Virus record (IMG/VR): IMGVR_UViG_2858943916_000002
Coordinates: 26,186 to 90,185 of that record
From: a virus
Taxonomy: Duplodnaviria; Caudoviricetes
Strand: one strand, 5' to 3'
Length of the DNA stretch: 64,000 bases
How positions within the stretch are numbered: the first letter of the stretch is position 1; every line of letters starts with the position of its first letter. The notes under the pieces were generated by a model. It saw only the letters and a program-made list of their open reading frames with translations, did not search any database and was not told the origin of the DNA. Both the position numbers and the translations under genes were made by a program. This document shows positions 2,780-58,349 of this stretch, in pieces.

Positions 2780-2986
2780 ACTGAATCATCCACGATGCTT
2801 AACCAGCCTTGCTCCGCGCGATAAAGAGTCCCGGCCTTCCTCATTTGTCCAAGCGCCTCGCTGGGCCTGTCGTCGCTTGCCGCCGTCGATCGACAACCGC
2901 TCATCCCTCGAAGCGGCGATGCTTGTCGGTGCGCGCCATTTTCACTACATTCGGACATTACGAAATCTTACAAAAAAGGAAATCTC

Positions 2987-4024
2987 GTGCCTAACGCCGA
3001 GCAAAACCAACGAAATGAACAGGCCACATCAAGGCTAATTCGGATCCCAATAATCGTGGGGGGCTTGCTAATACTTGCCTACGGTATTTATTTTGGACTC
3101 ATCCGGAAGCAGGGAACAGGTGGCACCGATATCTGGGGTCAATTTGGCGATTTCTTGGGTGGACTGCTAAATCCGATCGTGGGTACCATCACCATCATCC
3201 TTCTCGTCCGCACTCTCATGGCCCAGTTAAATGCTGTCGACATGCAACGGGAAGAGTTAACACTGCAGCGGGATGAATTAAAGCTCCAACGTGCAGAAAC
3301 CGCGAAATCTACGGAGGCATTAGCGGCGCAAAACAATGCAATCAAGATGCAGAGTTTTGAGCAGACTTTTTTCGCATGGCACGACAGTTATCGAACCTTA
3401 GTGACTAACCTCGCGGGGACTAATGCGCAACTCAGCGGAGCCCAGAGACTTCTGGAGTTATATCAGCCTTTCAAGTCCTCATCGGTCTGCAAGGTCGCCA
3501 AAGGCGCACTAACGGAATACGACTCCATCCCGCCGGCCACCTATCCTCAAGCGATCGAGAGCTATCTGACAGATGGGAATAGATTAGTCGTCGAGCGTTT
3601 CGAGCGGGCAATTACTGCATACGAGACGATCTATAGAAACCACCACTCTGTTCTAGGCCCCATCTATCGAACGCTTTATCGACTGCTAGATTGGATAGAC
3701 AGATCATCGATTTCGGACGAAGAAAAATGGCACTATGTGGCTATAGCGCGATCCCAGTTATCCTGGGGCGAAATGCTATTTCTAGCATTTAACGGACTAA
3801 CTCCCAGAGGGCTAAACTTTGTTCCTCTCATGAACAAGTACGCATTACTCGACAATCTTGAAGACCACACGGAAGACCTGGTCCTGGTAATGCGCAAAGC
3901 CTTTCTGAAAAAGCCGCCAGAGCTTCTTAATCCGCAAATCAATGCGTGGAGGTACGAGGACGGCGCCTTTCACTCGTCCGTCGCCAAATCGAAGTTGGGG
4001 ATATTGACCGCAAGAGATATTTAA
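2987..4024 (+). CDS. Putative abortive-infection protein (putAbiC-type domain with N-terminal TM helices)
   Basis: WGQFGDFLGG TM segment, coiled coil, FEQTFF, YRTLYRLLDWID...ARSQLS...LMNKYALLDNL motifs; AT-rich codon usage. Confidence 0.75.
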   Translation: MPNAEQNQRNEQATSRLIRIPIIVGGLLILAYGIYFGLIRKQGTGGTDIWGQFGDFLGGLLNPIVGTITIILLVRTLMAQLNAVDMQREELTLQRDELKLQRAETAKSTEALAAQNNAIKMQSFEQTFFAWHDSYRTLVTNLAGTNAQLSGAQRLLELYQPFKSSSVCKVAKGALTEYDSIPPATYPQAIESYLTDGNRLVVERFERAITAYETIYRNHHSVLGPIYRTLYRLLDWIDRSSISDEEKWHYVAIARSQLSWGEMLFLAFNGLTPRGLNFVPLMNKYALLDNLEDHTEDLVLVMRKAFLKKPPELLNPQINAWRYEDGAFHSSVAKSKLGILTARDI

Positions 4025-7835: not shown

Positions 7836-8155
7836 CGTCGTCCCCCAGGGGCCACAACCCTACCCTGCTCTACTACCGGTGCAACTCGTCCAATTCGTCC
7901 AGTGGCATTGCATTCACCACACATTAGCTTTTGAGGTTCACCAGAATACAACCATGCCAGGAATGGTTTGCGCACCAACTCATGGAATCGGTCGCGCGCC
8001 ATTTGATCCAGGTCGAGCTCGGCGCGCGACTCCACACCGGATACGCGACGAATGAACGCAGCGGCCTCATCGGCGCAGTGAACGCCAGCAAAAACCCAGA
8101 ACTTCGGATTTCGACTCAGCCGGACGGCCAGCCAGCAAATCGAATTGGCCTTCAT
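7832..8155 (-). CDS. Conserved phage hypothetical protein
   Basis: ATGA-coupled to the initiator; ESRAELD...FHELVRKPF motif. Confidence 0.75.
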   Translation of the reverse strand: MKANSICWLAVRLSRNPKFWVFAGVHCADEAAAFIRRVSGVESRAELDLDQMARDRFHELVRKPFLAWLYSGEPQKLMCGECNATGRIGRVAPVVEQGRVVAPGGRR

Positions 8156-11100
8156 TCGATATGCTCGAGTAAATCCCCTGCGGCAACACCCCGCTCCTCC
8201 GGCCCCTTACGGCATACACTGTTGGCTCTCACTCTGAACAGACGGGAGACGACCGACCATGAAGAAGTTAATAGTTGCGCTGAGGTATGAGCCATCCGTT
8301 GCGTTGCTCTTCGGGACGGCTGGCGTTGAATACCGCACAGATGGCGTTGTGGCTCCCGATGGGACGCAACTACCGGTGTGCCTATTACTCGTGGCATGCT
8401 CATCGGTTTCAGCCACGGACCATGGCCTTGTACGACTGGAAATTCGCCCAAGAGAGGGCGACCGAGCGCTTCCGTTCTCAGCGGTCTCAGTCCCAGCAGC
8501 ACTCCTTGCCTGGAGCATTGATTCAGGAAACGAGCGAGACTTCCCCGTGGGATTCCTACGTACCCAGGTCTAAGGCCGCGCATTGGCGTTGGGTGCAAGA
8601 GAACTTGATGCCGTAACAGATACCCGCTACTCTTGATAGTTACTTTTCTGTTACATCCAAGCGGAGTTGAAAGTGAATCAAGAGCAACACGAACTACTTG
8701 TCCAAGCTCATCAGCAAATGCTGAACCTTGCTCAAATAAACGAGGTGCAAATGAAGTTGAGCATGTCGATGCGAGAAGATCTGATGGCGGCGCAAATTGC
8801 CCTGCGCGCAGTGTGCGAAGTTCTTTCTCCCGAGGGAAAACGGCTTGCGGCTGAGCACATCCGGGAATTCGGGGAAGAGTTTCGGGATCGATTTGCAAAG
8901 GACCACCCAGACCGGGCGATTGACGGGTTCTCAATTGCAATAAATGCCTATATAGAAGGCTTGGGAGCCGCCCCCATCGCCGAGGGTGTGAAGTAGGACG
9001 CACGACAAAAGCGATTCGCCCATTCGCGCCTGCCAATCGCTGTTCAACTAGGAGATCGATTTGGATAACCCCGTCTATCGCTCCGCGATGGAAGGCCTGC
9101 AGGAAATGTATGGGCCTTTGTCTGGATGGCAAAGCAACGTAGGCGTTCGCACCAACACTTCGCCGAAGGGAAAAATCACCCTTTATCACGATCGAATCGC
9201 TTCCGGAAATAAGGCCGAGCTCGCGGTCGATCCTGAATCGATGGCCCGAGCGACCGGGCAAGGCGAAGACCAAGCCGAAGCTTTCATAAAACAACTGTCG
9301 CAGTTGACGGGGCGCGCCACCCTGACCCATGCAAGGTACAAATGGCCGCGGATCGGCTTGGCTGTGGACTCCGACGTGGAAGCAGTTTTGGAAGCTCTGC
9401 AAACTCTGTTCAATGAGGTGGCCTCGGACGCCCTCTCTTCGGATCCGTCGCCCAGCTACTGGTGGGTGAGCCACAACCAAATGCATCGCCGAGAGCTCAG
9501 CGGCGGCTACATCTGGTGTCCCCAGACCAAGAAAGGCGGCGGGGCGAGAGAAACCTGGACGAACGTATCTCGCGTGCGACGGGGAGACATCGTCTTTTCC
9601 TACGCAAAAACGAAGCTCCAAGCTGTTGGCGTTGCGCTTGGCGATGCACAGGAGGCAAGTGCTCCCAGCGAGGCGTATCACTCGTGGAACGATGCTGGAT
9701 GGCGCGTGACAATCCAGTGGGAATCCCTTGGATCCCCGTTGTCTCCCAAAGAGCATTGGGACGAAATCGGCGACCTTTTCCCTGCTGTCCATTCGCCACT
9801 GCGCGAGGATGGCGGCGGAAACATGACATACCTGGCGGCGTTGAGCGTGCCTCTGGGTTTGAAGCTGCTGGACCTGATCGGCATGACGGACGACGACGCC
9901 CTCGCGAACGTTGATCGGGAGATGGTCAAGGTGTCTGGCGTCGATAAGACCGAGGTTGAGCGGGTCTACCAAGCGCGTATAGGCCAAGGCACATATAGAA
10001 AGAACGTCATGTCCGTCGAACGCTACTGCCGCGTAACGGGTGTCAGCAATGTGGATCTGCTCATCGCGAGCCACATCAGGCCGTGGCGTCAAAGCTCGAA
10101 CCAACAACGCCTCGACGGCAACAATGGCCTGCTTCTCTCGCCTCACGTCGATAAGTTGTTCGACTCGGCCTGGATATCGTTTTCCGATCAGGGAGAGATC
10201 CTGGTTGCCAGCGGAGAGGTCAGAGAGGTGCTCATCGCCTGGGGCATTGACCCAGACATGAACGTAGGGCAATTCAATGAGGACCAAGAAAAATACTTGG
10301 CCTACCATCGAGACGTCCTTTTCTCGGAAAAGGCTAAGCAACCAGAAGAATGAGCGATCGGCCTCAATCGCAATCAGAAGAATCCACAAAGCACCTTGGA
10401 TTGAACCTGGCTGAGTTCGTACGTAATCCCACCAACCTTCACTAGACTCCCTGCAGGGAGCTTCCACATACGCAGCGATTAATCGGGAGATTTGGTCAGA
10501 ATGGCCCTCTACTTTTTGAGCTACGACTTGCGCAAATCCCGCAACTACCAACCGCTGTACGATGAACTGGCAAAGCTCGATGCCACTCGGGTCCTGGAAT
10601 CCCTTTGGGCGTTCAAACTCGCCGACACCAATTGCACATACGTTCGGGACTATTTCCGTCAATTTATCGATGCAGACGATGGGTTGATCGTGACCCAAGC
10701 TGTCGACTGGGCAACTTGGAACACGGATAAAGCCCCACCCAACACATAAGTCACGCCGTGCAGGAGGTAGCACCGCGCCCTCCTCCTGCCGGTCTAACGC
10801 CCGCGCCGCCTGTTCTAGATCAAGATGCGCATACTCAACTGGCGCCAATTTGACTTGGTCGGACACGTCGGGACGAATCCGCAACCTAGAATTGCCAACC
10901 AATTTGGCGGCCAGTTCCAGCCATATATGATCGGGATTCCCCAACCCCAACCATATGTGGAAGGAACTGACCATGGACCCGCAAGTAAGAGGACAATTGG
11001 CGACAATCACCTTCGCGCTTGGCAAACTCATCCGCTCGACCAGCCGTACCGCCGAACAGAGGCAAGACGAGGTGGAGCGGCTGCGGAGCTGGGCGGACCA

Positions 11101-11211
11101 CCAGCTCAAAGAGGCATATCGCGCGGGCGCAGATTCTGCCGGCCTCACGCCGGAGCAACAAGCCTTCCTGTCAGGAGTCCACGACACCGTAGACCAGTTG
11201 GCATGGCTCAT
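8152..11211 (-). CDS. 1019-codon antisense bridge ORF across five plus-strand cargo genes
   Basis: Stop-free in the ORF track; ATGA overlaps at both ends (11208-11211, 8152-8155); product has no recognisable motifs. Confidence 0.35.
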   Translation of the reverse strand: MSHANWSTVSWTPDRKACCSGVRPAESAPARYASLSWWSAQLRSRSTSSCLCSAVRLVERMSLPSAKVIVANCPLTCGSMVSSFHIWLGLGNPDHIWLELAAKLVGNSRLRIRPDVSDQVKLAPVEYAHLDLEQAARALDRQEEGAVLPPARRDLCVGWGFIRVPSCPVDSLGHDQPIVCIDKLTEIVPNVCAIGVGEFERPKGFQDPSGIELCQFIVQRLVVAGFAQVVAQKVEGHSDQISRLIAAYVEAPCRESSEGWWDYVRTQPGSIQGALWILLIAIEADRSFFWLLSLFREKDVSMVGQVFFLVLIELPYVHVWVNAPGDEHLSDLSAGNQDLSLIGKRYPGRVEQLIDVRREKQAIVAVEALLVRALTPRPDVARDEQIHIADTRYAAVAFDGHDVLSICALAYTRLVDPLNLGLIDARHLDHLPINVREGVVVRHADQVQQLQTQRHAQRRQVCHVSAAILAQWRMDSREKVADFVPMLFGRQRGSKGFPLDCHAPSSIVPRVIRLAGSTCLLCIAKRNANSLELRFCVGKDDVSPSHARYVRPGFSRPAAFLGLGTPDVAAAELSAMHLVVAHPPVAGRRIRREGVRGHLIEQSLQSFQNCFHVGVHSQADPRPFVPCMGQGGAPRQLRQLFYESFGLVFALPGRSGHRFRIDRELGLISGSDSIVIKGDFSLRRSVGANAYVALPSRQRPIHFLQAFHRGAIDGVIQIDLLVEQRLAGANGRIAFVVRPTSHPRRWGRLPSLLYRHLLQLRTRQSPGLGGPLQIDPETLPRIPGCAQPQAVFPREKELRTLRAGQFAPPSDLLASTCSTSFAPRLFEQGSAFADELGQVVRVALDSLSTPLGCNRKVTIKSSGYLLRHQVLLHPTPMRGLRPGYVGIPRGSLARFLNQCSRQGVLLGLRPLRTEALGRPLLGEFPVVQGHGPWLKPMSMPRVIGTPVVASHREPQRHLCGIQRQPSRRATQRMAHTSAQLLTSSWSVVSRLFRVRANSVCRKGPEERGVAAGDLLEHIE
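8259..8573 (+). CDS. Hypothetical protein (cargo)
   Basis: 104-aa ORF with GGGAG upstream. Confidence 0.6.
   Translation: MKKLIVALRYEPSVALLFGTAGVEYRTDGVVAPDGTQLPVCLLLVACSSVSATDHGLVRLEIRPREGDRALPFSAVSVPAALLAWSIDSGNERDFPVGFLRTQV
8667..8996 (+). CDS. Hypothetical helical/coiled-coil protein (cargo)
   Basis: GGAG SD (GTG 8673 is an alternative start); Q/E-rich helical pattern. Confidence 0.6.
   Translation: MKVNQEQHELLVQAHQQMLNLAQINEVQMKLSMSMREDLMAAQIALRAVCEVLSPEGKRLAAEHIREFGEEFRDRFAKDHPDRAIDGFSIAINAYIEGLGAAPIAEGVK
9061..10353 (+). CDS. EVE/PUA-like plus HNH endonuclease (modification-dependent restriction, VcaM4I-like) with an extra N-terminal domain
   Basis: YWWVS..Q....E..GGYIW.P and GDIVFS (EVE-like); R.GQG.YR, CRVTG, LIASHIRPW, RLDG.NGLLL.PH.D.LFD (HNH); TTG start with AGGAG. 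Confidence 0.82.
   Translation: MDNPVYRSAMEGLQEMYGPLSGWQSNVGVRTNTSPKGKITLYHDRIASGNKAELAVDPESMARATGQGEDQAEAFIKQLSQLTGRATLTHARYKWPRIGLAVDSDVEAVLEALQTLFNEVASDALSSDPSPSYWWVSHNQMHRRELSGGYIWCPQTKKGGGARETWTNVSRVRRGDIVFSYAKTKLQAVGVALGDAQEASAPSEAYHSWNDAGWRVTIQWESLGSPLSPKEHWDEIGDLFPAVHSPLREDGGGNMTYLAALSVPLGLKLLDLIGMTDDDALANVDREMVKVSGVDKTEVERVYQARIGQGTYRKNVMSVERYCRVTGVSNVDLLIASHIRPWRQSSNQQRLDGNNGLLLSPHVDKLFDSAWISFSDQGEILVASGEVREVLIAWGIDPDMNVGQFNEDQEKYLAYHRDVLFSEKAKQPEE
10501..10749 (+). CDS. Stand-alone Cas2/VapD-like small protein
   Basis: N-terminal strand YFLSYDL with an acidic D, Y..L..EL helix, ES.W, D.DD.L; 82 aa; no array nearby. Confidence 0.6.
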   Translation: MALYFLSYDLRKSRNYQPLYDELAKLDATRVLESLWAFKLADTNCTYVRDYFRQFIDADDGLIVTQAVDWATWNTDKAPPNT

Positions 11212-11712: not shown

Positions 11713-11968
11713 TGGAGGCTCCTTGCTGCGAATGGGCGCCCTGCCCCTTCCCCTTAAACTGGCTGCTCTCACACAAACCATCCTTGGGAAAGGAGCTGGG
11801 CATGGAAAAAACGGCGCGGCAGCAGTTCGACGACCTGCTGAAGGAATCGCACTTCTTCAACGATTCGATCAACACGGCAAAGCGAGCCGCTGGATACGCG
11901 GCCGGGCAAATCCTCGGCGCCCTCATCGAAGGGGATGTCACCATGTACGAAAAGCTCAAGCGACTCAT
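11705..11968 (-). CDS. Antisense bridge ORF B across cargo 11802..12143
   Basis: ATGA start overlap at 11965-11968 and ATGCGTGA end overlap at 11705-11712. Confidence 0.4.
   Translation of the reverse strand: MSRLSFSYMVTSPSMRAPRICPAAYPAARFAVLIESLKKCDSFSRSSNCCRAVFSMPSSFPKDGLCESSQFKGKGQGAHSQQGASNA
11733..11806 (+). promoter_or_regulatory. 74-bp cargo promoter/RBS element shared with prophage 2 (54521..54594)
   Basis: 67/74 identical by manual alignment; TAAACT -10-like hexamer, AAAGG(A/G)G SD and ATG. Confidence 0.65.
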
Positions 11969-26140: not shown

Positions 26141-26445
26141 GCCCCCTTACCGCGCACGCGGTCGATCACTGCCTGCCACAGCGCGCCGATGGGCGCCGCC
26201 TGCACGGCCTCCCACGCGCGCGACACGATGGCCATGCCGAACATTCCAGTCAGGAAGCCGGCCAAGCCTTCCGGAATACCCAGCAGCAATGACAGGTATG
26301 GCGACGCGTAGAAGGCCACCAGCGAACCGCTGGCCGCCATGCTCAGGCGCGCCGGCCACGAACCCTGCAGGTAGCGCATGGACACGGCCGCGCCCAGCAC
26401 CCCGGCGAACTTTGCCGCGAAGGCGTCGAAGTCTTGGATGTTCAA
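26137..26445 (-). CDS. Holin
   Basis: About 100 aa, 3 TM segments, basic C-terminus; TTG start. Confidence 0.75.
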   Translation of the reverse strand: MNIQDFDAFAAKFAGVLGAAVSMRYLQGSWPARLSMAASGSLVAFYASPYLSLLLGIPEGLAGFLTGMFGMAIVSRAWEAVQAAPIGALWQAVIDRVRGKGA

Positions 26446-53493: not shown

Positions 53494-53951
53494 CACACCG
53501 CCTTCACTTCGAGATGCACGCCGCGCGCGGCAAAGTCGTCGCGCACCGCGTTCGCATACCTGGTCAGTTGGCTGGTGTTCATCCGGGACGTGACCGGGAA
53601 CACGCGCATGGCCAGCAGCTTTTTCTCGTAGGACAGCGGCTTGATGGCGCCGTCGTAGGCCTCGCGGAATTCTTCGTCCTCGGCGCGCAGGATCGGCACG
53701 CCGTGGTGCAGCTTGCAATAGCACCGCCACCCCTGCTTGTCGTCCTCGGGCAGGGCTTCGGCGATCTCGCCGTACCACGCATGGGAGAAGGCGTTCTGCG
53801 CACGCGTGCGCGGCTTCTGTAGCTCGCGCACCACCACCTCAAAGGGATGTTCAGCATCCAGGGGCAGGCTCGCCAGGAACGCCTGCGCCGCTTCCTGCTG
53901 GCTCGGGCCCAGCAGAATGAACTTCTTTGGGTTCAACAGGCGCTGGCGCAT
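53493..53951 (-). CDS. ninB: NinB/Orf-family recombination protein
   Basis: RT..QN...HAW...IA, TSRMN..Q...Y. Confidence 0.78.
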   Translation of the reverse strand: MRQRLLNPKKFILLGPSQQEAAQAFLASLPLDAEHPFEVVVRELQKPRTRAQNAFSHAWYGEIAEALPEDDKQGWRCYCKLHHGVPILRAEDEEFREAYDGAIKPLSYEKKLLAMRVFPVTSRMNTSQLTRYANAVRDDFAARGVHLEVKAV

Positions 53952-53953
53952 GG

Positions 53954-54265
53954 CTATGCCGCCCCGCACGTGCCCTGGCTCAGCCTGGCGCGGCAGCAGT
54001 TGGCGCCGATGGCATTGCCACGGGCCAGATAGTCCATGTACCACTGCTCGACGATCGACAGGCCGAACACCTCCAGGATGGCGTCCAACTGCTCCAGCTT
54101 GATGCCGGCGTTGTTGTTCAGTACCTGGGTGATCGACGATTCATCTTTCCAGCCAGCCGCCTGCATGACGTCGGCGCGCTTGGCCTTGGACATGGTGGTC
54201 AAGGCCTTGCGGATCAGGGTTTCGCCCTGAGGCTGTGATGCGGAGGGAATCTGAGGGGCGTTCAT
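53954..54265 (-). CDS. cII: CII-like transcriptional activator
   Basis: V..A.GW.D.S.I..V..N..GIKLE.L...L..FGL..V; position after cro. Confidence 0.7.
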   Translation of the reverse strand: MNAPQIPSASQPQGETLIRKALTTMSKAKRADVMQAAGWKDESSITQVLNNNAGIKLEQLDAILEVFGLSIVEQWYMDYLARGNAIGANCCRARLSQGTCGAA

Positions 54266-54915
54266 GAGGCTTCAACGCTGTTCAAGTGAAAGGGAATGCC
54301 GCTGAAAGCGCGGCTCGGCACACTGGCGGCATGAAAAATCTGACCGAAACCGAAAAGCTGCTCATCACCGCCCAGGACATGGCCCGGCGCACCTTCGTCG
54401 ACCCCAGCGAGGCCGCGGTGCTGGCCATCTTTGAAGAGCTGCGCGCCGAGCGCGACCGCATGGCATGGGCCACCGACGACCGCGCCGGCGCGACGGTGCA
54501 CTGAGCCATGTCCATCGAATTGGGCGCCCTGCCCCTTCCCCTTAAACTGGCGGCTCTCACACTCACCGTTCTTGGGAAAGGGGATGGGCATGGACTGGAA
54601 GTTCGCCTTAGGCACGCTGTTCGCCGCGCTGGGCGGCCTGTTCGCGCTGATGAATCGGCATCCGCGCGTGTACAAGGCAATCAGCAGTGTGCTGACCGAC
54701 ATCATTGGGTTCTTGGGCACTGCGTCGATGGGCCTGTACCTGGGCATACAACTCGCGATGGATCTCATCCGAGACTCAGCCGCAAAGCAGATGCCGGATA
54801 TCACCGCGGCGTCGGTCGGGCAGTTGATGGGGAGCGCCGAAAGAGCCCTCACCGTCTTCGGCTGGGCGACAGCACTCATCTTTGCGTTGTTCGTCGGGCA
54901 TCTGGTGTTCGGCAT
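54262..54915 (-). CDS. Antisense bridge ORF across cargo 54590..54964 and 54331..54504
   Basis: AGGAGG SD overlapping the upstream TAG, ATG 54915; ATGA overlap with cII. Confidence 0.45.
   Translation of the reverse strand: MPNTRCPTNNAKMSAVAQPKTVRALSALPINCPTDAAVISGICFAAESRMRSIASCMPRYRPIDAVPKNPMMSVSTLLIALYTRGCRFISANRPPSAANSVPKANFQSMPIPFPKNGECESRQFKGKGQGAQFDGHGSVHRRAGAVVGGPCHAVALGAQLFKDGQHRGLAGVDEGAPGHVLGGDEQLFGFGQIFHAASVPSRAFSGIPFHLNSVEAS
54331..54504 (+). CDS. 57-aa helical protein antisense to the PR operon
   Basis: MKNLTETEKLL..AQD.ARR.F.DPSEAAV...F.EL.AERDR.AW. Confidence 0.6.
   Translation: MKNLTETEKLLITAQDMARRTFVDPSEAAVLAIFEELRAERDRMAWATDDRAGATVH
54521..54594 (+). promoter_or_regulatory. 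74-bp cargo promoter/RBS element shared with prophage 1
   Basis: 67/74 identical to 11733..11806. Confidence 0.65.
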
Positions 54916-54964
54916 CCTGGCCCTCCTAGCGGTCAACGAAGAGGACAAGAAGGCCAAAGGCTGA
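54590..54964 (+). CDS. Three-TM membrane protein (cargo)
   Basis: Hydrophobic segments; starts at the ATG of the shared element. Confidence 0.7.
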   Translation: MDWKFALGTLFAALGGLFALMNRHPRVYKAISSVLTDIIGFLGTASMGLYLGIQLAMDLIRDSAAKQMPDITAASVGQLMGSAERALTVFGWATALIFALFVGHLVFGILALLAVNEEDKKAKG

Positions 54965-55084
54965 CGCCAGGCCGACATGGAAATGCCAGCGCGACCACCA
55001 CGTGGCGCGCGCGGTCGCCCAGCGGGCATACCGGACAAGCCATGCGTGACGAGCAGCGCGCCGAGCAAGCAATTCGACGAGCAT
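54926..55084 (-). CDS. 52-aa post-cro ORF (Arg/Trp-rich, hydrophobic end)
   Basis: TGATG overlap with the cro stop; MLVELLARRAARHAWL... Confidence 0.5.
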   Translation of the reverse strand: MLVELLARRAARHAWLVRYARWATARATWWSRWHFHVGLASAFGLLVLFVDR

Positions 55085-55335
55085 CACGCCGCCTCCTGCT
55101 GGGCCGGCGCGGGCTCGGGAAGTTCGGGCCAGATCTCGCGCCAGTCCTCACGCATGTCCTGCCGGGTGACGGCGCGGCCCGACTCCCGCTCAATTGCGAC
55201 GCAGAGCTTTTCGCCGGCGGTTCGTTGCCCGTACATGACGTTGCGAAGGAAGGGCCACGTCGTTCCGCAACTTGCGGCGAAGGCCTCCCTCTGAGGAAGG
55301 CTGAGGGGCTTGAGGAAGTCTTTGAGCTTGTCCAT
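55084..55335 (-). CDS. cro: Cro-like regulator
   Basis: FA..CGTT..FLRNV.YG.R, IERES..AVTR..MR.DW..IWPEL. Confidence 0.88.
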   Translation of the reverse strand: MDKLKDFLKPLSLPQREAFAASCGTTWPFLRNVMYGQRTAGEKLCVAIERESGRAVTRQDMREDWREIWPELPEPAPAQQEAA

Positions 55336-55346
55336 ATGCGCCATAT

Positions 55347-55412
55347 TACATCGTTTGATGAATGTAGCAAGCATCATTTGATGAATGGCGCTCGCTCTAA
55401 CCGTTTGATGTA
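55347..55412. promoter_or_regulatory. OR operators of prophage 2 (TACATCA-N2-TGATGTA type)
   Basis: tacatcgtttgatgaa 55347, agcatcatttgatgaa 55370, ctaaccgtttgatgta 55397. Confidence 0.8.
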
Positions 55413-55420
55413 ATTCGGCG

Positions 55421-56119
55421 ATGCCCAGCACCAACACTCAAGCAGACACCCGACGCGAGAATCTCCAGGCCCTTGTCGATACTTTTGGACAAGCAGCGGT
55501 CGCGCGCTATGTAGGGAAACCTGATCGACAGATCGCTGACATCCTCGCTGGCCGAAGATCGATGGGTGAAAAACTCGCGCGCATCATGGAGGCTAATTGG
55601 CTCCAGAGTCGAAACGAGCCACTGCATTTGGATATCGCACGACAGTCGGCAGTTAAGGAAGCACGTCTCGAAGCCAGGATTTCGCTCCTAGATGATGAAG
55701 TGCCCATTCCCCAGTTCGACACTGGCGGCAAGATGGGCGACGGCCTTGAGCTGCGTGACCAGCCTGGCATGATCAAGAGCTGGCGGGTGGACCTGGAGTG
55801 GCTGAACAAGAACGTGCGGGGCGCCACCGCGGCCGGCAACCTTTGCATCGTGACCGGCTTCGGCGATTCCATGCGCCCCATGTTCAATCCCGGCGACCCG
55901 TTGCTGGTCGACCGCGGCGTTGTCACGGCCGACTATGACGCGGTCTACTTCTTCCGGGTGGATGGCGAAGGATTCATCAAGCGCCTGCAGAAGATCCCAG
56001 GAAAGGGTCTCGTCGCCCTCTCTGAGAACCCCGCATACCAGGCCTGGGTCGTCGAACCCACCATGGATTTCGAGGTCTTCGGCCGCGTGCTGAAGGTGTG
56101 GCGTAGCGAGGATTTCTAG
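55421..56119 (+). CDS. cI: CI repressor with S24 (LexA-type) autopeptidase
   Basis: N-terminal HTH; GDSM.P catalytic Ser, IKRL Lys, V.GRV. Confidence 0.92.
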   Translation: MPSTNTQADTRRENLQALVDTFGQAAVARYVGKPDRQIADILAGRRSMGEKLARIMEANWLQSRNEPLHLDIARQSAVKEARLEARISLLDDEVPIPQFDTGGKMGDGLELRDQPGMIKSWRVDLEWLNKNVRGATAAGNLCIVTGFGDSMRPMFNPGDPLLVDRGVVTADYDAVYFFRVDGEGFIKRLQKIPGKGLVALSENPAYQAWVVEPTMDFEVFGRVLKVWRSEDF

Positions 56120-57712: not shown

Positions 57713-57758
57713 ATGTCTCCCAACACCCCACCACCCGGTGGGAAACAGGGAGAAGACC

Positions 57759-58349
57759 TTGAAACACGAGATCAAGAACCGCTGGACCGGCGCCGTGCTC
57801 TTCACGGCTGATGTGCCCGAGGGCACCGAGAGCGGGCTGATTGCTCGTGTCGCGCTGGAGCAGGCTGTGGCGCGCGGTGCCGACCTGCGCGGCGCCAACC
57901 TGGGCGGTGCCTACCTGCGCGATGCCTACCTGCGCGGCGCCAACCTGGGCGGCGCCAACCTGGGCGGTGCCGACCTGCGCGGCGCCAACCTGGGCGGTGC
58001 CGACCTGCGCGGCGCCAACCTGGGCGGTGCCTACCTGCGCGATGCCTACCTGCGCGGTGCCGACCTGGGCGAGCTCAGCAGCATTTGGGGCGCCAGCGGC
58101 AACCTCCGCGAACTTAAGGCCGTCCAGTGCGACACCTGGCCTGTGTCCTACACCGCCACGCACATGCAGATCGGCTGCCAGTTCCACACGTTGGAAGCGT
58201 GGTGGTCGTTCACGGACGAGCAGATCGCGCGCATGGATTCGTCGGCGCTGGCGTGGTGGCAGAAGTGGAAGCCGGTGCTGCACACGATCGTCACGATGTC
58301 GCCGGCCGTGCCTGGCGGCGAGAAGCCGGCCGAGCAGCAGGCCGCCTGA
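57759..58349 (+). CDS. Pentapeptide-repeat protein
   Basis: 13 (G/D)A(D/N/Y)L(R/G) repeats between an IKNRWTG.VLF head and a H.QIGC..H...W tail; TTG start with GGAG. Confidence 0.88.
57876..58070 (+). repeat. 13 x 15-bp tandem repeat array
   Basis: Five unit types in the order A B C D B B A B A B C D E; the 60-bp ABCD block occurs twice exactly. Confidence 0.92.

Follow-up and report, generated by a model that had tools for sequence, protein, structure and literature searches.

The window analysed here is a stretch of 64,000 nucleotides (nt), positions 26,186 to 90,185 of the 90-kb IMG/VR virus record IMGVR_UViG_2858943916_000002; the annotated phages closest to it come from Bordetella, Burkholderia and Acidovorax. 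Our subject is the interval 54262-55084 in what we call prophage 2, which is the spacer between cro and cII of a lambdoid prophage of the Achromobacter type; almost all loci homologous to it lie in genomes of Achromobacter and Bordetella. Two genes in this spacer, plus57 and TM126, point backwards with respect to the early operon, and the operon strand opposite to them is crossed by two open reading frames (ORFs), here called relay ORFs, that connect the end of cro with the start of the gene in the cII position. An earlier note on this DNA had described the succession of cro, a 52-codon ORF, a 217-codon ORF and cII, and all its junctions and coordinates hold to the base. The features are, in order of position:

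53954-54265, minus strand: gene in the cII position, encoding a DNA-binding-type protein of 103 amino acids (aa; phrog_20051, "DNA binding protein", E = 8e-10).
54262-54915, minus strand: second relay ORF, 217 codons, crossing TM126, the hairpin element and plus57; no Pfam or PHROG match.
54331-54504, plus strand: plus57, a conserved two-helix protein of 57 aa, recognised as a gene from diversity by codon position, codon usage and other gene callers.
54505-55085: cargo insert of 581 bp relative to the cargo-free form, consisting of the hairpin element, TM126 and a conserved 3′ flank.
54520-54599, minus strand only: structured element, a hairpin of about 70 nt, supported by folding, covariation and a covariance model.
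54584-54964, plus strand: TM126, a predicted membrane protein of 126 aa and the accessory cargo (codon-usage log-odds 0.26 per codon; G+C content at third codon positions, GC3, 0.81).
54922-54928, minus strand: TAG stop (54928-54926) overlapping a perfect AGGAGG (54927-54922), followed 6 nt later by the ATG at 54915.
54926-55084, minus strand: first relay ORF, which starts in TGATG and has 52 codons; it lies on the 3′ flank of the insert and has no Pfam or PHROG match.
55084-55344, minus strand: cro-like gene, 86 aa, of the YdaS/phrog_35 type (phrog_35, E = 8e-11; the match to YdaS_toxin is weak).
55421-56119, plus strand: cI-like repressor with a C-terminal LexA-type S24 peptidase domain (Pfam Peptidase_S24, E = 4e-16; phrog_4, transcriptional repressor, E = 1.5e-31).

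The immunity region is of the lambdoid kind in that a repressor with an S24 domain lies divergent from a small Cro-type gene. The name cII denotes a position: the protein has no Pfam match at E ≤ 0.01, Phage_CII included, and a sequence search of PDB returned nothing, so that the family identity implied in the earlier note is given up and the gene is called cII-like below.

Signals at the Junctions

The TGA stop of cro (55086-55084) and the ATG of the first relay ORF (55084-55082) share one base in TGATG, and a GTG at 55087 is in the same frame. In addition to the signals reported before, a Shine-Dalgarno (SD) sequence, AGGAGG at 55097-55092, lies in the last codons of cro, 7 nt before the relay ATG. 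The first relay ORF ends within the second SD sequence, and the second relay ORF ends with a TGA (54264-54262) that overlaps the ATG of the cII-like gene (54265-54263) in ATGA. When coupled cistrons are defined by a start codon that overlaps the upstream stop or lies within about 10 nt of it, and by an SD sequence inside the upstream coding sequence, the series TGATG with AGGAGG 7 nt upstream, TAGGAGG-N6-ATG and ATGA is what such cistrons look like.

The perfect AGGAGG is embedded antisense in the cargo gene, as had been claimed, its plus-strand bases being the TM126 codons CTC-CTA. It is likewise correct that the 217-codon frame is not codon-aligned with the larger cargo, for its third positions face the third positions of TM126; with respect to plus57 it is the exact, codon-aligned reverse-complement frame. 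The first relay ORF is retained in the diverged TM-cargo loci L113, L115 and L117, and the segment with TAG and AGGAGG is kept even in L052, a locus that is elsewhere only 55% identical in nucleotide sequence.

The segment 54965-55085, which is the 3′ flank of the TM cargo and holds the 52-codon ORF, is better conserved than the TM gene itself, also in L052, and contains the palindrome CCACGTGG. Neither of its strands has a significant predicted fold (z = +0.85 and -1.0), and recombination may use the segment as a boundary.

The Slot in Related Prophages

Homologues of plus57, 54-57 aa long, were found at about 110 loci (L014-L112 among them) in Achromobacter and Bordetella prophages, always backwards between the cII-position gene and cro. 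About half of these slots are free of cargo, with the plus57 stop 3-6 nt from the cro stop, and on their minus strand cro is joined through ATGA to an ORF of about 83 codons that mirrors plus57 exactly in antisense; cII follows after a second ATGA, or after a stop and an SD sequence. The remaining loci have at least one extra gene between plus57 and cro. Because a contig from a public run joins position 54504 straight to 55086, the 581 bp between these positions are an exact insert.

The alleles of cro diverge widely, yet they share a small set of tails (...QQEAA*, ...EEARAA* and ...SHA*; here ...PAQQEAA*), and these encode GAGG or AGGAGG together with an ATG at -4, -1, -8 or 0 from the stop in about 55 of 58 contexts, according to our own tally from the table over the correctly parsed cro-stop contexts. 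From the conservation of an SD sequence and a start codon in the cro tail follows that the ORF after cro is set up for translation. On the cII side the junction is ATGA where cII is of the MNAP type and TAAGGAAG-N7-ATG where it is of the MSTQ type, or else the ORF ends within about 20 nt of the gene.

Two rules were used to decide whether a chain of ORFs crosses a slot. The strict rule admits ATG and GTG starts and junctions within 12 nt, and the lenient rule admits ATG, GTG and TTG starts and gaps of up to 25 nt. The earlier note had named a survey of this kind as a way in which the idea of a bridge could fail, namely if homologous slots proved to be usually unbridged. They are usually bridged: among 48 dereplicated slot variants the strict chain crosses 40 and the lenient chain 47. 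Several slots with long cargo had been misparsed by the simple gene caller, which missed cro or took cI for cargo; these were checked by hand and parsed again, and some errors remain. The peptide sequence of the relay ORFs changes completely with each cargo.

In some slots the gene that directly follows cro is a genuine minus-strand member of phrog_20156, 229-232 aa long and matched with E = 1e-138 (L020:4092-4790, L010:2069-2758 and L080:4101-4796), which the simple gene caller had placed on the wrong strand.

A Proposed Path for Ribosomes from cro to cII

Consider the fate of an early transcript of the P_R type in this prophage. The backward module, made up of plus57, the element of about 70 nt and TM126, points in the direction of cI and lies antisense in the way of this transcript, which would have to pass it before arriving at the cII-like gene and the genes for recombination and replication behind that gene. 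Read off the signals at the junctions, the path of a ribosome would have three steps. A ribosome that ends cro would restart at the overlapping ATG, with the AGGAGG of the last cro codons as SD sequence; it would then terminate at the TAG inside the second AGGAGG and restart 6 nt further on, at the ATG at 54915; finally, it would terminate in ATGA, directly on the start codon of the cII-like gene. The benefit could be twofold: continuous translation would spare the antisense stretch from Rho-dependent polarity, and ribosomes would reach cII by coupling. Rho is known to terminate untranslated and antisense RNA (PMC12360218, PMC11551753).

On balance we think it probable, if far from certain, that the relay frames are translated from the signals in cro and in the cargo, that their peptides are unconstrained, and that the frames are kept open so that ribosomes may accompany the polymerase to cII.

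How Often Such Chains Arise by Chance

The explanation that competes best with a selected relay says that the frames are a by-product of GC3-rich coding in combination with shared descent, so that the relay ORFs are shadow ORFs, only the short coupled start after cro is real, and nothing functional follows from the frames extending as far as cII. We regard this as unlikely, while giving it real weight, and the comparison turns on two null models. The first consists of control antisense stretches taken elsewhere in the same loci. In the second, the codons of TM126 are resampled synonymously with the junctions held fixed.

When only ATG starts, overlaps of at most 4 nt or gaps of at most 12 nt, and at most two ORFs are allowed, the tightness of the prophage 2 slot is matched by 2.7% of 485 control stretches, which are 500-900 nt long and come from the same phage family. 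With gaps of up to 25 nt and ATG, GTG or TTG starts, the fraction of stretches in this length range that are crossed is 66%. By the strict rule the controls are crossed in 41%, 29%, 15% and 7% of cases with rising length, and strict chains are 3 to 14 times commoner in slots than in controls, which the by-product explanation does not predict. Nor does it account for the clustering of the junctions at -4, -8 and -1, where one would expect them to cover the allowed range.

A number of observations weigh against selection of the relay, and they should be seen together. Lenient chains cross 53-89% of the control antisense stretches shorter than 1.5 kb. Among synonymous resamplings of TM126, the strict chain survives in 70% and the lenient chain in 96%. 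Given the TM126 protein and the codon usage of the phage, this frame stays open with probability P ~0.22, because TM126 is poor in Tyr, His and Gln. This probability and the resampling show that the cargo of this one locus provides no evidence by itself. Fully open codon-aligned antisense frames occur in 16 of the 49 genes of the window, and extreme GC3 bias is known to produce pseudo-ambigrammatic frames without selection (PMC13262655). Eight of the 48 slot variants break the strict rule, the loci are related so that the survey counts are not independent events, and some slots hold genuine minus-strand genes, as exemplified by phrog_20156. Furthermore, a hairpin of -47 kcal/mol sits within the 217-codon ORF that ribosomes would have to read. 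The public RNA runs that were searched are without this prophage: three raw runs under the same species label gave zero reads on the stretch, and one contig set represents the cargo-free form. The relay ORFs are also devoid of a coding signature, as shadow ORFs would be.

The case for selection rests on what happens when cargo families are considered one by one. Six TM homologues with 52-89% nucleotide identity have open frames in six of six cases, with P of 0.18-0.36 each and P ~0.01 for the family. Three phrog_1244 cargos with 26-33% amino-acid identity are open in three of three cases, with P ~0.4 each and P ~0.03 for the family. In plus57 no antisense-stop codon is observed where 2.9 are expected in about 79 phylogenetically independent draws of Leu or Ser codons, which after this correction for relatedness is just P ~0.05 and thus also agrees with a by-product. 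Fisher combination over the families gives p ~0.003, by our own arithmetic and with families chosen after the fact. Four unrelated cargo families are without codons that would stop the operon-strand frame, and the avoidance is modest. It recurs, against the by-product explanation, also in ORF25 of phage LPB1 with its low GC3, and GC3 alone cannot explain a 1019-codon ORF over cargo of 50-60% GC, to which we return below. It is this recurrence at the level of families, and not the TM126 locus alone, that supports selection. The contention of the earlier note that the outcome reflects selection rather than chance is therefore supported family-wide, by the bridged slots and the combined p, and is not supported by TM126 taken alone, with its P ~0.22 and its bridge kept in 70% of resamplings.

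The Plus Strand as Coding Strand

The plus-strand ORFs plus57 and TM126 are the genes of the spacer, and the relay ORFs lack a coding signature. The codon-usage log-odds per codon is 0.49 for plus57, with a GC3 of 0.86, while it is +0.04 for the 217-codon and -0.12 for the 52-codon relay ORF; in plus57 and TM126 alike, the G+C content at first codon positions (GC1) exceeds that at second positions (GC2). Over 91 distinct plus57 sequences the diversity at codon positions 1, 2 and 3 is 0.18, 0.14 and 0.37, and the mean amino-acid identity is 75% in the plus57 frame compared with 56% in the antisense translation, which means that the reverse product, as in ambigrammatic sequences, is not conserved as a protein. 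Changes that are synonymous in plus57 lead to radical swaps in antisense, such as Arg, Gly, Cys and Ser in one and the same column. Independent callers have annotated plus57 and the TM gene in other public assemblies, and at other loci plus-strand cargo matches phrog_1244 while the ORFs antisense to it match nothing.

The products themselves have few relatives. AlphaFold2 predicts a two-helix hairpin for plus57 with a pLDDT of 79, and from its size and position it may be CIII-like. Searches of Pfam, NCBIfam and PADLOC with plus57, TM126 and the cargo of prophage 1 gave no meaningful match. TM126 belongs to no PHROG family, its single NCBIfam match (VC0807 family) has 17 bits and is far under the cut-off of 65 bits, and a scan of genome contigs with it gave no match; its relatives are eight protein clusters with 67-95% identity, all from Achromobacter and labelled "hypothetical protein" only.

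These data bear directly on the idea of true dual coding, according to which the 52-aa and 217-aa products, or at least the product of the ORF of about 83 codons antisense to plus57, are functional early proteins. The idea draws on the operon-style SD sequences, on the starts that overlap the preceding stops and on the annotators of Bordetella phage vB_BaM-IFTN1, who called equivalent minus-strand ORFs (_51 and _52). It conflicts with the 56% identity and radical replacements of the antisense peptide, with log-odds near zero or negative, with the absence of the relay ORFs from Pfam and PHROG families and with a peptide that is wholly different for each cargo; we therefore rate it as very improbable. 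That the minus-strand ORFs are the sole real genes and plus57 and TM126 their shadows can hardly be right, in spite of the Bordetella phage entry with its minus-strand genes only, since third-position variation with conservative replacements, a GC3 of 0.81-0.86 with GC1 above GC2, the independent gene calls and the phrog_1244 matches all mark the plus strand as coding and already contradict it.

In the GenBank entry of this phage (OM293950.1, L013) the interval 2809-3518 lists the two minus-strand relay ORFs as hypothetical and omits the plus57 homologue (2902-3063, plus strand) as well as a second plus-strand ORF (3134-3382). The slot is probably annotated on the wrong strand.

A Strand-Specific Hairpin in Front of the Cargo

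Between plus57 and TM126 lies the hairpin element, the plus strand of which holds the SD sequence and the ATG of the cargo gene. When the single sequence is folded, the minus strand reaches -47.2 kcal/mol (z = -5.2), and the z value of the plus strand is -1.6. The consensus fold of 21 variants, which represent at least three sequence types, has 24 pairs, nine of them compensatory, and amounts to -26.5 kcal/mol on the minus strand compared with -7.05 kcal/mol on the plus strand. Many pairs of the hairpin are U-G pairs, which on the opposite strand would be C-A mismatches. The fraction of paired cells is 94.4%; it is 85% after shuffling and 42-55% after sliding of the partners, and the covariation score was reached by none of 500 shuffles.

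A covariance model detects the element three times in the window, always on the minus strand (54520-54599, 11732-11811 and 10903-10982), and in 22 loci (for example L032:3690-3769). In 20 of these loci it directly follows the stop of plus57, and L015 and L017 have it about 480 nt further on. At least six cargo genes of other loci, unrelated to one another, have the element in front of them. A search of Rfam 15 over 53800-55600, on both strands and at E ≤ 1, returned only a chance microRNA match on the other strand.

In its consensus form the element is a single long hairpin with interruptions, whereas the put site of phage HK022 consists of two stem-loops. A pair of hexamers, TTGGGC-17 nt-TA(A/C/T)(A/G)CT, is kept in all types of the element, as judged by eye, and lies under the threshold of the promoter scan. 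On the DNA or the plus-strand RNA the element is possibly the promoter and ribosome-binding site of the cargo cassette. On the early transcript it could possibly stabilise or process the RNA, or hide the complement of the cargo ribosome-binding site. An integron attC site was considered for the hairpin and rejected, as the core-site consensus does not fit; no integrase gene was noticed beside the slot, where none was specifically searched for.

Comparison with Known Systems

The closest formal parallel is that of ambigrammatic narnaviruses, in which a reverse ORF covers the gene of the RNA-dependent RNA polymerase (10.1101/761890, identical with PMC6884476; PMC8316113; PMC8155312). In both, an extended frame free of stops lies opposite a real gene, its product is unconserved and stop-making codons are apparently avoided, and in narnaviruses it is thought that translation itself, rather than the peptide, matters, as is proposed here. 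They differ in that we deal with a temperate phage of bacteria with double-stranded DNA, that the open frame is confined to the backward genes in an operon, and that several relay ORFs follow one another, with SD- and ATGA-type junctions linking them to a real gene at either end; the benefit proposed would moreover be specific to prokaryotes.

In translational coupling of operon neighbours (reviewed in PMC12548453; for re-initiation, see PMC2268962) one finds the same ATGA and TGATG overlaps, SD sequences within the upstream gene and restarts within about 10 nt of the stop. Unlike coupled genes of an operon, the relay cistrons are apparently without a functional product and lie antisense to genuine genes, and they would only link cro to cII.

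Shadow ORFs and pseudo-ambigrammatic frames of GC3-rich genes (PMC13262655) share with the relay ORFs that the frames are codon-aligned or third-on-third and carry no coding signature. The junction signals, the contrast with the controls and the recurrence over cargo families appear to go beyond what codon usage predicts.

For the operon as such, lambda is the natural reference. Its cro-cII interval contains nutR, tR1, P_RE and OOP, and the early transcript is carried on by antitermination through N, or through put in other phages. The slot of prophage 2 has the same position between cro and cII; lambda makes a transcript near cII that runs towards cI and meets P_R transcription head-on, as would be expected of the backward module here, and in both the early transcript must be carried past the interval (for cII and OOP in lambda, see PMC5869508). 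In lambda the interval is without a gene and its passage depends on N and nut, whereas here it is fully translatable and contains plus57, a conserved gene facing backwards, either alone or together with cargo. Neither a nut or put site nor an intrinsic terminator was recognised at the slot by the Rfam search and the promoter and terminator scan.

Accessory genes between core phage genes, whether their role is unknown or directed at the host, are familiar as the morons of prophages, such as bor and lom in lambda. Like morons, the cargo genes are slotted among core genes, with a common upstream element in front of many different genes. Unlike morons, they face against the early operon with the operon strand left open, no terminator was found with them, and no promoter rose over the threshold of the scan.

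Other Instances and a Possible General Rule

Prophage 1 of the window has a minus-strand ORF of 1019 codons (8152-11211) over plus-strand cargo of 50-60% GC. The earlier note had taken prophage 2 for an independent repeat of this design. Independence must be withdrawn, for the element of about 70 nt ahead of the cargo is common to both prophages, both bridges run through it in one and the same frame, and the start in the cro tail is a trait of the whole family.

Outside the family there is a parallel in the Pseudomonas phages D3112 (L119 1456-2022) and LPB1 (L118 1384-1905). Their ORF25 is a phrog_1244 gene, of the same family as some of the slot cargo, and is flanked by ORF24 and the large terminase gene, which share one direction while ORF25 runs against them. 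A codon-aligned antisense ORF spans ORF25 and overlaps both neighbours. In LPB1 the junction is ATGA, and ORF25 of this phage is free of CTA, TTA and TCA codons in spite of its low GC3 of 0.52. The situation differs in that these are Mu-like phages (Casadabanvirus) of another host, that the operon is a late one and that no hairpin element was noted.

Taken together, the slot of prophage 2, the 1019-codon frame and ORF25 could be instances of a general rule for temperate phages of beta- and gamma-proteobacteria, by which an operon tolerates a backward insert only as long as the strand of the operon can still be translated across it. The relay frames would then be stop-free, without a functional product and joined by SD and ATGA signals to the flanking genes, and the inserts of Achromobacter and Bordetella would add a strand-specific hairpin at the border. 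This extension we put forward tentatively, and it may well turn out to be wrong.

If the relay frames are indeed selected, they explain how accessory genes, among them genes for defence, exclusion and lysogeny, can be placed against an essential operon without cutting it off. Acquisition of morons would then be under a constraint that current annotation ignores, and ambigrammatic coding, until now a curiosity of eukaryotic RNA viruses, would extend to DNA phages with a testable rationale in Rho and ribosome-coupled transcription. For annotation, gene callers probably choose the wrong strand in such slots, as when relay ORFs are listed and plus57 is missed in the Bordetella phage entry. The slot and its shared upstream element are a place to seek new accessory genes, and the strand-specific hairpin is a new and well-supported RNA motif.

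Neighbouring Features

Upstream of plus57 one further feature abuts the start of the cII-like gene:

54271-54285, plus strand: direct repeat TTCAA-N5-TTCAA, read from the sequence.

Sites for lambda CII have a similar repeat spacing of one helical turn, and by this analogy the repeat might, speculatively, be the activator box of a P_RE-like promoter. Because the module lies at the position of the lambda P_RE transcript and the repeat abuts the cII-like start, we speculate that plus57 and the cargo are expressed together with cI when lysogeny is established. The scan of the slot found no promoter over its threshold, and the sole terminator-like site was a weak minus-strand match in the plus57 leader.

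On the minus strand the early genes beyond the cII-like gene are ninB, an HNH/YbcO nuclease gene and an O/DnaD-like replication gene. On the other side of the slot, the gap of 73 bp between cro and cI contains three direct repeats of approximately TTTGATG(A/T)A(T/A), within 55340-55410; as TTTGATG(A/T)A repeats in the cI-cro gap they are likely candidates for operators. Beyond cI, an ORF of 203 aa on the plus strand (57738-58349) contains a long run of pentapeptide repeats.

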